DNA of 64,000 bases from Candidatus Thorarchaeota archaeon (GTDB lineage Archaea; Asgardarchaeota; Thorarchaeia; Thorarchaeales; Thorarchaeaceae). Positions 21,636-30,729 of this stretch are shown one piece after another (the first letter of the stretch is position 1; each line of letters starts with the position of its first letter). The position numbers were made by a program, and so were the translations under genes. The DNA is taken from assembly GCA_004524445.1 (NCBI GenBank), contig SDNP01000006.1, forward strand, positions 1-64,000, in the 5' to 3' direction. The notes below the pieces were generated by a model. It did not search any database and was not told the origin of the DNA. It saw nothing but the letters and a program-made list of their open reading frames with translations.

Positions 21636-23591
21636 TTGAGTCCATCAACTGACAAAACAACCAAAGCATCATCAGGCGACATAAAACAAGGAACCATCGC
21701 CAAGTTCATGCGCAAGAGAACGCAGCTAGTGGGCTTTGAAACTGGTCTTAACAAACATACTCAGTATGCCATTGAATTCCTCGATAATGCAATTGATGCC
21801 TTGGAGAGTTGGTGGTGGCGGACTAAACGGAAGCCCAGAATTCCCGACCAATTAGATCCGGAGCTTGTTGAAGAGATAAAGGAGAATTTAGTTGGGAAGA
21901 TTTCAGATACCATCAGCGAAAGCAAGGAGTTGGAGAAAAAAGTTCGCGCTGGGAAGGAGGTTGAGATTCCTCCTCGGCAGGATGAATCGTTAGATGACAA
22001 AGTCGACCGCTTCAAGAAATTCATAAAACCATTTAGAAAACTCATCCGAAAACGCGAGCCTCTGGTCGTAATGCAACTCAAAGAGATTCAGATGCCAGAC
22101 CTTGTGCCAATCGATGACGAAGATGGCTTCAAAGTCTATGAATTCACGGTTTTTGATTCTGGTATTGGAATGGTGCCATCAGACTTGGAGAAATTCGGAA
22201 TCTATCTTGCATCAAGCAAGTCCGAGAAATTGAGACAGACTAGAGGTAGTCAAGGATTTGGAGCACCATCTGCATTCAGTGATGCTCAGAATACTACAGG
22301 CAAGCCCATATTCACGATAACGAAGCGATATACAGCAGACAAGGCCACCGCAGCAGATTTCTACACAACTACTGCAAATACAAAGGACTATGTCGCTGGG
22401 CCAAAGCAAATGAAACTACCTTTCAAACAAGGCACCTACATTCGGCTACACTATCTTAACATCCAGTATAGGCGAGGCTATGCAGACATTTATGCAGAGA
22501 TGGCATCTTTACTGAATGCACATGTAACCATTGTATTCATTGATCCTTACGGTGAGGTCCATATCTATCCCCGTAGAGTAAAGCAATTCCCTGATGAACC
22601 AAAATATGCGCAACCTCATCCGGCAAGTATAAGAATTGGCGAATTCCAGGATTTGCTCAGAGAAACTGACCAGACATATGTCAAGGGGTTTCTAACGAAA
22701 GCTTTCGTGAGACTGAGCGGTAACAAGGCAGAGTCCATTATCAAGGCAACAAATGAAGAGCTTAAGAGTCGTGGATTACCCAAGATTGGTGGTCGCACAA
22801 AAACTAACAAACTGACAAAAGACCACGTTGAGCTTTTGTATCGTGCATTTTCTGCTGAAGATTATTACGCACCTCCCACTGATACAGTCGTTCCTGTTGG
22901 AGAAGAGGTTTTTGAGCAGACCATACAAATGGCATATGAGCCCGATTTCACTGCGTCGGTCACTCGAAAGCCTACCTCCGGCAAGGGTCTATCATTCGCC
23001 GTTGAGGTGTGTATTGCATATGGTGGCGAAATAAAACCGGCGACATCTGCCCCCATGGTACTTTGGAGATTTGTAAATCGAGTTCCAAAATTGCGTGACA
23101 ACAGCGATTGTGCCACTTGGAAGGCAACAGCCATGGTCAACTGGAAGAACTACAAGCTTGATACATTTGACAATGGCATTCCAAAGGGGTCTGTTATGGT
23201 GTTTATCCATGTCTGCGGAGCTTATGTCCATGTTATGTTCAAAGGTCAGAGTAAGCAAGCACTGGCCGAAGATGAAGTCCTGCTGAAAGAAATTAAACTT
23301 GCACTGGAAGAAGCAGGCCGGAAGTTCAGGCGATTCATAACAAAGAAAGAACGCGCAAGGAGAAAGGCGAAGCGGGCCGGCATACTTGCGATGTATGCGG
23401 ACCAATTTGCAGAGAGTCTAACAACAATCGCAAATGGCGGACTTGGCAAGAAAAAGTATGACGCTGAGCAGGTCGCAAGTAAGATTCGTGATGCGATCAC
23501 AGGTTTCGAAACAGAAGACGACCAAAAAGAAACAGAAACAGATACTGAGGGTAGTGACCTCGTTGCTGATGTTCCGTTAGATGATGAATAG
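21636..23591 (+). CDS. top6B: DNA topoisomerase VI subunit B
   Basis: GHKL motifs EFLDNAIDA, DSGIGM and TRGSQGFG; RFVNRVP; FKGQSK transducer; adjacent to top6A. Confidence 0.92.
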   Translation: MSPSTDKTTKASSGDIKQGTIAKFMRKRTQLVGFETGLNKHTQYAIEFLDNAIDALESWWWRTKRKPRIPDQLDPELVEEIKENLVGKISDTISESKELEKKVRAGKEVEIPPRQDESLDDKVDRFKKFIKPFRKLIRKREPLVVMQLKEIQMPDLVPIDDEDGFKVYEFTVFDSGIGMVPSDLEKFGIYLASSKSEKLRQTRGSQGFGAPSAFSDAQNTTGKPIFTITKRYTADKATAADFYTTTANTKDYVAGPKQMKLPFKQGTYIRLHYLNIQYRRGYADIYAEMASLLNAHVTIVFIDPYGEVHIYPRRVKQFPDEPKYAQPHPASIRIGEFQDLLRETDQTYVKGFLTKAFVRLSGNKAESIIKATNEELKSRGLPKIGGRTKTNKLTKDHVELLYRAFSAEDYYAPPTDTVVPVGEEVFEQTIQMAYEPDFTASVTRKPTSGKGLSFAVEVCIAYGGEIKPATSAPMVLWRFVNRVPKLRDNSDCATWKATAMVNWKNYKLDTFDNGIPKGSVMVFIHVCGAYVHVMFKGQSKQALAEDEVLLKEIKLALEEAGRKFRRFITKKERARRKAKRAGILAMYADQFAESLTTIANGGLGKKKYDAEQVASKIRDAITGFETEDDQKETETDTEGSDLVADVPLDDE

Positions 23592-23620: not shown

Positions 23621-25951
23621 TTGGCTAGAAAGAAATCAACCAAGACGAAGAGTGTGCAGACAACGCTGGGCGAGCATGAAGAGCCCGCGAAAGACAAAGA
23701 CATCAAGAAGAAGGAAGATGCCGGCAAAAAAACAACTCGGAGAAGGAAGAAGATGCCCCACAAGAAGAAATCGACACAAAATAAGAAGAGCAAGAAGGTC
23801 AAAGATGCAGGCCTTTCACAACTTAAAGAGATACCCGGAGTGGGCCCAACGCTTGCATCAAGATTAGCTGAATCCGGATATTCATCCATAGAGACAATCT
23901 CCAAGACCAAACCAACAACTCTTGCAAAGAAGGTTGAAGGACTTGGGAAAAAGGGGGCCTCTGATCTTGTGGATAAGGCGAAGACAATCTCCAGGAAAAT
24001 GAGCAAACCCAAAGAACTCGGTTTCAAGAATCTGCCTGGCGTTGGAGAAACACTGGAAACTAGGCTATATGTTGCTGGATATGATTCAATCGAAAAGATC
24101 TCTCAAGCCTCCGCAGCTAAATTAGCGAGAGAGATTGAAGGGCTAGGTAAGAAGGGCGCCTCAGAATTACTATCTGAAGCCAAGAAATATGTAACGCAGC
24201 AACAGGCGAAGAAGAAGAAGAAGAAGAAGAAACTGCCGAAGGACCTGAATCTGCGAAAGCTTTCGGGAGTTGGAAAGAAACTTGAGAGTCGGCTTTTTGA
24301 AGCTGGATATGATTCAATCGAGAAGGTCGCCAAAGCATCGCCTTCAAAATTATCCTCTGAAGTAGAAGGGCTAGGTGAGAAAGGCGCCCAGGATTTGGTG
24401 GCTGATGCCAAGAAGAAAGCTCCCACCAAACCCAAAGCACCCACGAAACAGAAGAAGAAAGATATTCCAAGTGTGAAGCTCACTAGTATTCCAGGTATTG
24501 GCTCCAAAACCGCCGCCAGTCTGAAAAATGCAGGTTATGATTCACTGCAACAAATTGCTGACTCAGATCCTAAAGATATAGCAAAAGAAGTTGATGGGGT
24601 CGGAAAGAAAGGGGCCAAAAAATTAGTAGAAGTTGTAGCAGATATAATTCCTGAGCTCGAAAGCATAGCAGAACCAATTGCTACTAAAGCCAGACCTGCA
24701 AAGCGTCGTAAGTCTGGACGTAGGGCTATGAAACGATTCAAGGTAAAGCGTACAAAATCAGGTCTGCCAGTTCCTAAGAAGGTTAAACAAGTAACCAAGG
24801 AAATGAGGGCACACTGGAAAGAGATAGACAAGCGAGAAGAGGAGGGAGAACTCATTGATGAAGATTTGCCAGATACAATGGAAGTTGTTGCTCTTACGGG
24901 TGATGAAACCAAAGAAGAACTGGCCAATGTGGCAATTGAGGTTCTCAATGAAGCGCTGACAACAGGAAGACCTGCATTTGAAATTCCAAGCAGGTCCAGT
25001 GATAATATAGTATGGGACGAATTTAGAGACCTTCTTTTACTGGGCACCAAGACCATCTCCAGACCATATCATTCACTAGGCTCCGTTGTTGATGCGACGA
25101 GGACAGCACGACTGATGGAAATAGTCTACCGTCTTCTTGATGAAAATCTTCACGCAACAAAACGAGAGGTATTCTATAGTGATGTGAATCTCTTCAGAGA
25201 TCAACGATATAGTGACAAGCTCATTGAAGATGTGGCTTCTATGCTTCATACCACTCGGGATAGTATTCATGTAGTTGCATCTGCGAGAGGGTCTGCTTTG
25301 GGTCGTGTTACTATACGCGACGGAGGCGACTTGATAGACCTAACCAGAATGGGGACGGGGGGATGGTCAATCACACCATTTCTGGACCAAGTTGAAATAG
25401 TTGAAAGCGACGCAGAATTCATAATCGTATCAGAAAAAGACGCTGCTGTAATGCGTCTTGCAGAGGCGAAATACTGGAACCGACAACCATGTATTGTCAT
25501 AACTGGAAAGGGTTCCGGTGACATTGCGACCCGTGCGTTCCTGAAGATGCTGGTGAGAGAACTTGAAATCCCCGCATTTGCACTCATGGATTCGGATCCG
25601 TATGGACACTATATTTACTCAGTTTTCTTAAGAGGCTCTAAGCGTCTTAGCTATGAGTCTCCATTCATCGCCACTCCGGAGCTTAAGCTACTTGGTGTAT
25701 TGAGCAGAGACCTTGACCGTTTTGAAATTCCGAAGAGCGTTCGAATCCCAATGGAAGATTCTGACATTAAGAGGGTCAAAGAAATGCTGAAGGAACCCTT
25801 TGTCCAGAAGAACAAGGAATGGGTCAAGGACTTGGAGCTAATGTTAAAAATCAAGGAGAAAGCAGAGATTCAAGCCTTCGCCAGCCATTCGTTCAAGTAC
25901 CTTACGGACGAGTATCTGCCCACAAAGCTAGAAACTGGTGATTGGATCTAA
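23621..25951 (+). CDS. top6A: DNA topoisomerase VI subunit A (Spo11 family) with a long N-terminal extension of four (HhH)2 repeats
   Basis: TKREVFY catalytic Tyr, Toprim motifs SEKDA and DSDPYG, KAEIQAF; four N-terminal L..(I/L)xG(V/I)G...GY.S repeats. Confidence 0.92.
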   Translation: MARKKSTKTKSVQTTLGEHEEPAKDKDIKKKEDAGKKTTRRRKKMPHKKKSTQNKKSKKVKDAGLSQLKEIPGVGPTLASRLAESGYSSIETISKTKPTTLAKKVEGLGKKGASDLVDKAKTISRKMSKPKELGFKNLPGVGETLETRLYVAGYDSIEKISQASAAKLAREIEGLGKKGASELLSEAKKYVTQQQAKKKKKKKKLPKDLNLRKLSGVGKKLESRLFEAGYDSIEKVAKASPSKLSSEVEGLGEKGAQDLVADAKKKAPTKPKAPTKQKKKDIPSVKLTSIPGIGSKTAASLKNAGYDSLQQIADSDPKDIAKEVDGVGKKGAKKLVEVVADIIPELESIAEPIATKARPAKRRKSGRRAMKRFKVKRTKSGLPVPKKVKQVTKEMRAHWKEIDKREEEGELIDEDLPDTMEVVALTGDETKEELANVAIEVLNEALTTGRPAFEIPSRSSDNIVWDEFRDLLLLGTKTISRPYHSLGSVVDATRTARLMEIVYRLLDENLHATKREVFYSDVNLFRDQRYSDKLIEDVASMLHTTRDSIHVVASARGSALGRVTIRDGGDLIDLTRMGTGGWSITPFLDQVEIVESDAEFIIVSEKDAAVMRLAEAKYWNRQPCIVITGKGSGDIATRAFLKMLVRELEIPAFALMDSDPYGHYIYSVFLRGSKRLSYESPFIATPELKLLGVLSRDLDRFEIPKSVRIPMEDSDIKRVKEMLKEPFVQKNKEWVKDLELMLKIKEKAEIQAFASHSFKYLTDEYLPTKLETGDWI

Positions 25952-29703: not shown

Positions 29704-30729
29704 ATGTCACCAAAAAAAGATGAGAACGACGAGGAAGATGTCGATTACGAGGAATTTGAGGAAGAAGATGAGGAAATAGATGATGAATTACCTGATTACG
29801 AGCTCACAGATCTTCCCGGTGTTGGTCCTGCAATAGGAAAACGATTGGTAGAGGCTGGATTCAAGAGTGTGGAGGCGATTGCAGTTGCTTCACCCGGTGA
29901 ACTAGCAGCTGCTGGCTCAATAGGCGAAACTACTGCAACGAAGATTATCAAGGCCGCCCGTGAGATGCTTGACATCGGGTTTGAAACAGCAGACTTGTTA
30001 CTCGAGCGCAGACAGACTGCAGGGAGAATTACAACTGGCTGTAAAGCTCTGGATGATCTTTTTGGCGGTGGTATTGAAACACAAGCGATTACTGAAATGT
30101 ATGGTTCATTCCGGTCCGGAAAAACACAAATGGCTCATCAACTAGCGGTAAATATTCAGTTGCCTCCGGGGGAGGGCGGTCTCTCAGCAACGGCGATTTA
30201 TGTAGACACAGAAGGAACTTTCAGACCTGAGAGGCTTGTTGACATGGCAGAGCATCTAGGTCTTGATACGGAGGCAGTTTTGAAGAATGTGGTTTGGGCA
30301 CGAGCCTACAATTCCGACCATCAAATCCTTTTATGTGATCAAGCAATGGAGATGGCTCCTGAAACGAACGCAAAACTTTTGGTTGTAGACTCTGTGACCA
30401 GTCATTTTCGGGCAGAGTACACGGGAAGAGGAACCTTAGCTGCAAGGCAGCAAAAACTCAACAAACATCTACATCATCTCCAGCGCGGTGCAGAGGTAAA
30501 TAATATGGCAGTGTACATTACTAATCAGGTAATGGCCCGACCAGATGCATTTTTCGGTGATCCAACTACCCCTGTCGGCGGCCACGTTCTAGCTCATGTT
30601 CCCCAAACTCGATGCTATCTACGAAAATCAAAAGGGGAACGAAGAATATGTCGTCTTGTGGATTCTCCACATCTACCAGAGGGTGAAGCAGTATTCACCA
30701 TTACTAAGGAAGGAATCCAGGACGTATAA
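29704..30729 (+). CDS. radA: DNA repair and recombination protein RadA
   Basis: N-terminal Hh[10 protein letters not shown] Walker [24 protein letters not shown]. Confidence 0.97.

Follow-up and report, generated by a model that had tools for sequence, protein, structure and literature searches.

A topoisomerase VI cleavage subunit with a conserved N-terminal arm of helix-hairpin-helix modules in a family of Thorarchaeia

Topoisomerase VI (Topo VI), from which Spo11 descends, is the type II topoisomerase of archaea, and it binds DNA weakly. The cleavage subunit of the canonical archaeal enzyme, Top6A, is 350-390 aa long and carries no accessory DNA-binding domain in the solved structures (2zbk_A, 1d3y and M. 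mazei 2q2e/9o0g). We analyzed 64,000 nucleotides of a Candidatus Thorarchaeota archaeon (GenBank assembly GCA_004524445.1, contig SDNP01000006.1, positions 1 to 64,000; this whole stretch is the window) in which a single gene encodes a Top6A of 776 aa. The protein shares with the canonical subunits the 5Y-CAP and Toprim domains, the catalytic Tyr, the Glu, the DxD motif and an adjacent Top6B, but has in addition a strongly positive N-terminal arm of ~420 residues that contains a PIP-box-like tip, Lys tracts and four tandem helix-hairpin-helix modules, (HhH)2. The locus raises the question of whether such a fusion is genuine, how it arose and what a topoisomerase would do with it. We found that the arm is real and conserved family-wide, and that it is an extension of a known enzyme that we found in no paper.

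Architecture of the fused subunit

Positions 23621-25951 of the forward strand contain a single uninterrupted open reading frame of 776 aa, stop codon included, that starts with TTG 29 nt past the stop codon of top6B. The TTG start was supported by the N-terminal sequence M-x-[KR]-K-K...[VI]-Q-x-T-L-G, which is shared by 103 of 120 homologues. In a Pfam scan of the protein, four stretches matched HHH_5 (E 2.1e-44), residues 493-551 matched TP6A_N (E 1e-19) and residues 600-770 matched PF21180, the Toprim domain of Top6A/Spo11 (E 5.7e-55). These matches bear out the original prediction, made from the letters of the window, of a 776-aa Top6A fused in one frame to four tandem (HhH)2 modules and Lys-rich tracts, and the repeat starts that it had placed at 23822, 24023, 24251 and 24479 coincide with the L-x-x-[IL]-PGVG starts of the four modules. 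The features of the locus are as follows.

23621..25951, + strand: top6A with N-terminal arm, 776 aa, TTG start backed by the conserved N-terminus of homologues
23657..23680, + strand: PIP-box-like tip QTTLGEHE, residues 13-20 (logo of 103 homologues)
23684..23806, + strand: first Lys-rich disordered tract, residues 22-62 (34% Lys over residues 1-62; pLDDT <50 for residues 1-59)
23807..23986, + strand: (HhH)2 module 1, residues 63-122 (HHH_5; five helices with pLDDT ~90; hairpins at 73 and 107)
24008..24187, + strand: (HhH)2 module 2, residues 130-189 (HHH_5, hairpins, repeat hidden Markov model (HMM) and AlphaFold2 (AF2) model)
24206..24229, + strand: K8 linker, residues 196-203, encoded by (AAG)7AAA (Tandem Repeats Finder, period 3, 8 copies)
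24236..24415, + strand: (HhH)2 module 3, residues 206-265 (54% identical to module 2)
24464..24643, + strand: (HhH)2 module 4, residues 282-341, the most divergent (35-40% identity to the other three)
24674..24766, + strand: second basic disordered tract, residues 352-382 (pLDDT <50)
24755..24841, + strand: K-S-G-L-P-V-P motif and helix at the arm-core junction, residues 379-407 (homologue consensus; helix 386-407 modelled)
24878..25948, + strand: Top6A core, residues 420-776 (PDB 2zbk_A, E 3.4e-58; Foldseek 9o0g_A, E 1.3e-18)
25175-25177, + strand: catalytic Tyr519 in the 5Y-CAP domain (alignment to solved Topo VI-A)
25433-25435, + strand: Toprim Glu605 (alignment to solved Topo VI-A)
25589-25597, + strand: Toprim Asp657/Asp659, DxD (alignment to solved Topo VI-A)
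21636..23591, + strand: top6B, partner ATPase subunit, 651 aa (Pfam Topo-VIb_trans, E 1.4e-42; PDB 2q2e_B, E 1.2e-53)

The core consists of an Asgard-type N-terminal helix (residues 427-447) followed by the 5Y-CAP and the Toprim domain. Its catalytic residues had been predicted to be intact, and alignment confirmed this, since Tyr519 (in the context REVFY), Glu605 and the DxD at 657/659 aligned with their counterparts in S. shibatae 2zbk_A and M. jannaschii 1d3y. The Tyr within R-E-x-[FY]-Y that marks type IIB Top6A/Spo11 proteins, as well as E605, D657 and D659, was invariant in the homologue alignment. The fold was also that of solved Topo VI-A (Foldseek: 9o0g_A, E 1.3e-18; 2zbk_A, 1.4e-16; 1d3y, 5e-16), and the core matched Spo11 8urq_A with an E-value of 3e-9. 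The 651-aa Top6B retains the N box (EFLDNAIDA), the G1 box (DSGIGM) and the G2 box (GSQGFG) of the GHKL ATP site, the H2TH region and a transducer with WKNY, which fits the WKxY pattern of a Topo VI partner subunit. Judged by these motifs, the fused protein is apparently an active Top6A, and the Topo VI to which it belongs would be expected to perform ATP-dependent strand passage. We also noted a ~95-aa insert in the GHKL domain of Top6B (residues 58-153, between the N and G1 boxes), for which there is no aligning segment in the Top6B of M. mazei or S. shibatae.

Each module of the arm contains two G-[VIL]-G hairpins 34 residues apart (residues 73/107, 140/174, 216/250 and 292/326), and the arrangement of an (HhH)2 domain, paired G-h-G hairpins with a connector helix in a five-helix unit, was found in all four. 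An AF2 model built on a 53-sequence alignment (mean pLDDT 75.9) showed four five-helix modules with pLDDT ~90 and disordered linkers between them; disorder was seen at residues 1-59, 200-205, 271-279 and 352-382, and two helices, 386-407 and 427-447, precede the core. The linkers are very basic, as the original prediction had pointed out: one of them, AKKKKKKKKLPK, occupies residues 195-206, and residues 1-440 have an isoelectric point (pI) of 9.9 and a net charge of +45 as compared to a pI of 5.7 for the core. Modules 1-3 are 49-54% identical to one another. At the DNA level, Tandem Repeats Finder detected only the (AAG)8 tract in the gene, and the module duplications are therefore old at the DNA level in this genome. 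The (AAG)7AAA run itself (24206-24229, + strand), which encodes the eight Lys of the linker, is a slippage-prone in-frame microsatellite, and linker length could vary between strains.

Conservation and single origin of the arm

We searched for homologues using the core (residues 440-776) as a query against proteins of 426-1358 aa. The search gave 474 matches, of which the best 120 were inspected; nearly all of these were 650-855 aa long and combined HHH_5 with the Top6A domains, and their sources were NCBI, JGI, ENA and Logan assemblies that mostly bore the label Thorarchaeota. The fusion was seen in more than 100 independent assemblies, some of them single-contig genomes or contigs of 0.4-0.8 Mb. 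When the class was surveyed, Top6A was present in 86 of 87 genomes, most of which had a long frame (650-954 aa) together with one or two frames of normal length. In an Asgard sample of 161 genomes, the long frame was present in all 29 genomes of one Thorarchaeia family (shorter only at contig ends), while orthologues were 390-483 aa in every other Asgard family and 420 aa in the sister family. Thus the survey contradicts a misassembly absent from all relatives, the outcome that the original prediction had named as fatal to it. The fused protein is annotated in databases only as 'helix-hairpin-helix domain-containing protein', and our search of the literature on Topo VI or Top6A with HhH, on Asgard archaea or Thorarchaeota, on type IIB enzymes and on Top6A evolution did not find the fusion described.

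To place the fused sequences we relied on a core tree from a quick IQ-TREE search with SH-aLRT support only. The 22 fused sequences formed one clade (SH-aLRT 99), and their sister was an unfused Top6A of 423 aa (P0127), whose gene lies in the same synteny, top6B-top6A-Zn-ribbon-x-radA. Since the fused sequences form a single clade, the nearest unfused relative shares the synteny and the arm is restricted to one family, we conclude from these comparisons that the arm has a single origin, in place, at the base of one family of Thorarchaeia. A recent foreign origin of the arm was rejected because arm and core share the same GC content (0.449 and 0.452). When residues 60-345 were compared with proteins of 30-425 aa in a word-indexed search for a free-standing donor, only one contig-cut Thorarchaeota fragment was returned, and no close stand-alone relative of the arm was found at the sensitivity of this search. 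We also considered a short isoform made from an internal start, which seems unlikely from the sequence, as no Shine-Dalgarno-like sequence lies ahead of Met370, Met395 or Met420.

Across the family the arm is 284-481 aa long (median 349), contains 23% Lys (range 19-25%) and has a net charge of +31 to +73. Its layout from the N-terminus is a Lys run, the invariant Q-x-T-L, a disordered tract rich in Lys, Thr, Ser and Pro, the HhH2 modules, a second basic tract and the K-S-G-L-P-V-P helix, whose region contains an invariant Ser and an invariant Trp, followed by the Asgard-type Top6A. Mean pairwise identity across the family was 89% for the core, 53% for the modules, 53% for the tip and 56% for the SGLPVP helix, and 29-33% for the linkers; the difference between modules and linkers fits selection on the modules. 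Using an HMM made from the repeats of this protein, we counted modules in 121 homologues and found two in 103, three in 2, four in 6 and five in 1. The four modules of the original prediction therefore hold for this protein but not as the family norm, which is two; the four-module homologues include the genus studied here, and four is a genus-level expansion. In a module tree built on 60-residue units, which is noisy and leaves the ancestral module number unsettled, the last module appeared orthologous across genera and the first-type module recently duplicated in several lineages.

Topo VI paralogues, Asgard relatives and other HhH proteins

Although the predicted architecture stood, the original prediction had missed the conserved tip and the presence of three top6B-top6A operons in the genome. 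The fused operon is on contig C7; the other two, both without an arm, are on contig C34 (L004:6296-8867, - strand; Top6B 505 aa, Top6A 382 aa) and, as a divergent copy, on contig C52 (L005:3311-5994, - strand; Top6B 511 aa, Top6A 382 aa). Two or three Topo VI copies are present in most genomes of the class, in agreement with a 2025 study (PMC12680538) in which Asgard archaea were described as having several Top6A/B pairs, and Thorarchaeia a third copy. With the other two Top6A of its genome the fused core shares only 28% and 25% identity, as against 62-72% with the Top6A (~395-425 aa) of Baldr-, Odin-, Hel-, Loki-, Hod-, Hermod- and Jordarchaeia. Because of this identity and phyletic spread, we identify the fused gene at the sequence level as the orthologue of the conserved, eukaryote-like Asgard Top6A, the copy that was placed sister to eukaryotic Top6A/Spo11 (PMC12680538); the main text of that study makes no mention of HhH. 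The conserved Asgard-type proteins resemble the fused one in their orthologous core (62-79% identity), their basic N-terminus and their Asgard-type N-terminal helix, an extra helix noted earlier (PMC9665070). The fused protein differs from them by ~350 extra residues between the basic N-terminus and this helix, which comprise the four HhH2 modules, the Lys tracts and the Q-x-T-L tip. P0127, the nearest unfused relative, keeps top6B-top6A...radA as in the fused locus. GyrA (PF00521) was not found in this genome, which is 90% complete, and its absence is not proven at that completeness.

Large additions to the same conserved Topo VI were also seen elsewhere among Asgard archaea. Top6B frames of 2,258-4,305 aa occur in several other families, and of ~1,015-1,178 aa in others, adjoining the conserved Top6A. 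In a Top6B of 4,184 aa (genome G110, L027:812-13366, - strand) the Top6B part is N-terminal and is followed by ~3,600 residues with weak HhH-type Pfam matches, RAD51D_N and RNA_pol_A_CTD. These giant subunits differ from the fused Top6A in that the addition is on the B subunit, is C-terminal and is an order of magnitude larger, and they represent an independent event in different families. Given the arm on Top6A in one family and the giant Top6B in others, large appendages were acquired on more than one occasion in this Topo VI lineage.

A tandem (HhH)2 array on a topoisomerase is otherwise known from Topo V of Methanopyrus kandleri, which has 12 such units (8df7; PMC9489208) and to which the original prediction had likened the arm. 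The likeness was upheld in fold, as the array matched the Topo V-DNA complex 8df7_A by Foldseek (E 5.8e-4, 323 columns), along with the C-terminal repeats of NusA; by sequence the two arrays matched only weakly (E 1e-6). The catalytic domains are unrelated (type IC in Topo V, type IIB here), and nothing but the HhH repeats of 8df7 was matched (query 205-278, chain 618-691). The array of Topo V is C-terminal and compact and includes lyase sites, whereas that of the Top6A family is N-terminal, has 2-5 units (four here) and is broken up by disordered Lys-rich linkers. The resemblance to Topo V is thus functional and not one of family membership.

HhH2 modules were also found on other proteins of the genome. 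Ribosomal protein eL32 (contig C24:141712-143061; L023:3713-5062, + strand; P0242; Ribosomal_L32e, E 4e-35) has four (HhH)2 modules at its N-terminus (HHH_5, E 2e-46) together with a Lys-rich linker, and its gene lies in a ribosomal-protein operon between those of uL6 and eL19. The Rpo6 subunit (RNA_pol_Rpb6; contig C52, L018:1063-1737, - strand) has a single (HhH)2 module at its N-terminus, with an Arg-rich linker; an extended Rpo6 of Thorarchaeota was noted in a 2026 paper (PMC13257274). Two HEAT-repeat proteins each have one HhH2 and a Lys-rich linker (one of them at contig C1:4555-5940, + strand), and a multi-pass membrane protein has a C-terminal HhH2; the second HEAT protein and the membrane protein account for the loci on contig C63 (L013:1063-1695, - strand) and contig C48 (L014:82-1695, + strand).

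Proposed function of the arm and its tip

Our preferred interpretation, to which we give a probability of about 0.65, is that the fused protein serves as the A subunit in an active Topo VI, that the two arms of each A2B2 complex tether this enzyme to DNA, and that the tip may add docking on PCNA. The enzyme would carry two flexible polycationic arms, each with a charge of ~+45 here and with four (HhH)2 modules that would grip the DNA backbone independently of sequence, joined by Lys-rich disordered linkers. Such arms would keep the enzyme on DNA and raise the local DNA concentration, and could thereby improve the capture of DNA crossings, processivity or salt tolerance in relaxation and decatenation, much as the Topo V HhH array, or the C-terminal DNA-binding domains of type IIA enzymes, may do. 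The data show the architecture with its intact motifs, its conservation, the module folds and the single origin of the arm; that the arm binds DNA and thereby affects activity is inferred. The (HhH)2 domains of Topo V surround DNA, contact only its phosphate backbone, have been proposed to act as a processivity factor and confer greater processivity on other enzymes to which they are fused (PMC9489208); from this family, the modules of Top6A would be expected to bind double-stranded DNA independently of sequence. The built-in DNA-tethering arm of the original prediction therefore remains the best reading of the locus.

At replication forks the tip may further bring the enzyme onto PCNA, the sliding clamp. 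Residues Q13, T15 and L16 were invariant in the homologue alignment, and the logo of 103 homologues gave the consensus Q-x-T-L-G-[DE]-[LV]-[VI], which has the spacing of a PIP box (Q-x-x-[LIM]-x-x-[FYW]-[FYWL]) with Q and L invariant. Archaeal PIP-box clients such as Fen1, RNase HII and TIP likewise have a terminal Q-x-x-L-x-x-h-h beside a disordered basic linker, and in the genome studied here the C-terminal residues of Fen1 and RNase HII are QSSLADFL and QTALDEY. We modelled the first 45 residues of the Top6A of a sister genome (G003) with the PCNA of that genome, using an alignment for each chain. The model gave an ipSAE of 0.62 as compared to 0.00 for the best of three controls, and it passed a mark that was reached by 58 of 80 solved complexes and 2 of 110 mismatched pairs, a calibration that is rough since we used our own alignments. 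The runs agreed in at least 94% of contacts with a partner pLDDT of at least 53. Residues 9-23 of Top6A were placed against PCNA residues 40-47, 121-128 (the interdomain connector), 226 and 242-249 (the C-tail), i.e., in the interdomain-connector and C-tail pocket that PIP boxes use. Circumstantially, archaeal proteins such as TIP are known to have a PIP motif at the N-terminus on a disordered linker, and a NucS pull-down from P. abyssi recovered both subunits of Topo VI along with PCNA and RFC (PMC4929162). PCNA docking of Top6A is only modelled, and this in the sister genome; that the tip is a true PCNA-docking motif, making the family's Topo VI a clamp-coupled, HhH-held, replisome-tethered type IIB decatenase, seems to us possible but doubtful. 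We also observed that the first disordered tract of the G003 arm (L026:5366-5740) contains an internal tandem repeat of KKTTTKKTKSKPKE units and has S/T-P-K-K-like motifs reminiscent of histone H1 tails.

Several observations weigh against this interpretation of arm and tip. Positions 7/8 of the tip are aromatic in the archaeal PIP-box clients but aliphatic in the Top6A family (Leu/Val and Val/Ile in most relatives), and the copy in this protein, QTTLGEHE, is degenerate, with His-Glu at these positions. The model with PCNA shows likeness rather than binding, because many PIP-PCNA complexes have been solved and the pass may reflect them. Module number is labile (2-5, and frames reach 954 aa), so that no fixed geometry of the array is required, and the occurrence of HhH2 modules on eL32, Rpo6, HEAT-repeat and membrane proteins may reflect a general habit of the lineage with a benefit that is not specific to DNA topology. 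DNA binding by the arm and activity of the enzyme are, moreover, predictions.

We weighed four other explanations. That the fusion is an artefact of assembly or gene calling that joined an HhH protein to a normal Top6A is effectively refuted: the source genome is metagenome-assembled (~90% complete, estimated contamination 5.4%) and nothing else speaks for it, while the same uninterrupted architecture recurs in the independent assemblies from all four sources, the frame is free of stops and frame changes, the GC content of arm and core agrees and the internal Met codons have no Shine-Dalgarno-like sequence before them. A more serious, although still unlikely, alternative is that the arm serves mainly in chromatin or nucleoid targeting or architecture, as an H1-like polycationic tail with multivalent HhH modules that concentrates the enzyme on chromatin or scaffolds it there, possibly in condensates, and does not tune catalysis. 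The high Lys content and charge of the arms across the family, the long disordered K/T/S/P tracts with S/T-P-K-K-like motifs in some members such as G003, and linkers conserved in composition though poorly in sequence are all in line with this. The HhH modules, the tip and the SGLPVP helix are, however, conserved far better than the tracts, which points to specific contacts and not to bulk charge, and the chromatin role overlaps with tethering more than it excludes it.

It is improbable that the array adds apurinic/apyrimidinic (AP) or deoxyribose phosphate (dRP) lyase chemistry as some (HhH)2 repeats of Topo V do. Topo V repeats include lyase sites built from lysines (PMC9489208) and the modules of this protein have Lys-rich G-L-G-K-K-G hairpins, but these lysines are not conserved (most relatives have G-L-S-x-x-G), the invariant residues of the arm comprise Gly, Leu and Tyr with structural roles and a single Lys at the end of a helix, and the match to the lyase repeats of Topo V is no better than that expected of the generic fold (E 1e-6). 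Equally improbable is an arm derived from RadA that couples recombination to a Spo11-like double-strand-break activity, in which case the adjacent radA would encode a functional partner. RadA (Rad51 and HHH_5 by Pfam) is encoded at 29704-30729, 3.75 kb downstream of the fused gene, the RadA/Rad51 N-terminal (HhH)2 domain (1pzn, 2f1h) shares HHH_5 and the five-helix fold with the arm, and a single module superposed on RadA 2f1h with a root-mean-square deviation of 0.8 A over 54 residues at 35% identity. The special likeness to the RadA N-domain that the original prediction had read into the repeats nevertheless turned out to be generic, because they are 30-36% identical to that domain and 41-51% identical to the single HhH2 of the HEAT-repeat protein on contig C1, the closest in the genome, and because the top6BA...radA synteny is present in the unfused sister lineage and so predates the arm. 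On the same identities an origin of the arm from RadA was rejected; the arm also has no ATPase core and no specific kinship with the RadA of this genome. Furthermore, the ATPase motifs of Top6B are intact, which fits an enzyme that passes strands and not a nuclease complex of the Spo11 type.

The relevance to the evolution of Spo11 and Top6 accessory factors that was originally proposed is by analogy only: the arm is derived and confined to one Thorarchaeia family, and for this reason it says little on the origin of Spo11 directly. Its interest lies in a natural, family-wide experiment in which the same core (89% identity) occurs with 0, 2, 3, 4, 5 or more HhH modules, and in which two unfused Topo VI paralogues in the same cell provide a built-in comparison for the fused enzyme. 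This makes it possible to test what DNA tethering does in a type IIB enzyme to the capture of crossings, to processivity and to salt tolerance, the coupling of such an enzyme to PCNA, and the division of labour among three Topo VI in an Asgard archaeon in which no gyrase was found. Our literature search found no type IIB topoisomerase with a PIP box, and a PCNA-coupled Topo VI, if true, would be an arrangement that we did not find reported. An association of Topo II-alpha with PCNA has been reported, and the armed enzyme would then be its archaeal counterpart, with the other two Topo VI paralogues covering other topological tasks in genomes in which no gyrase was found. Together with the giant Top6B of other Asgard families, the armed Top6A means that this Topo VI lineage gained DNA-holding appendages more than once.

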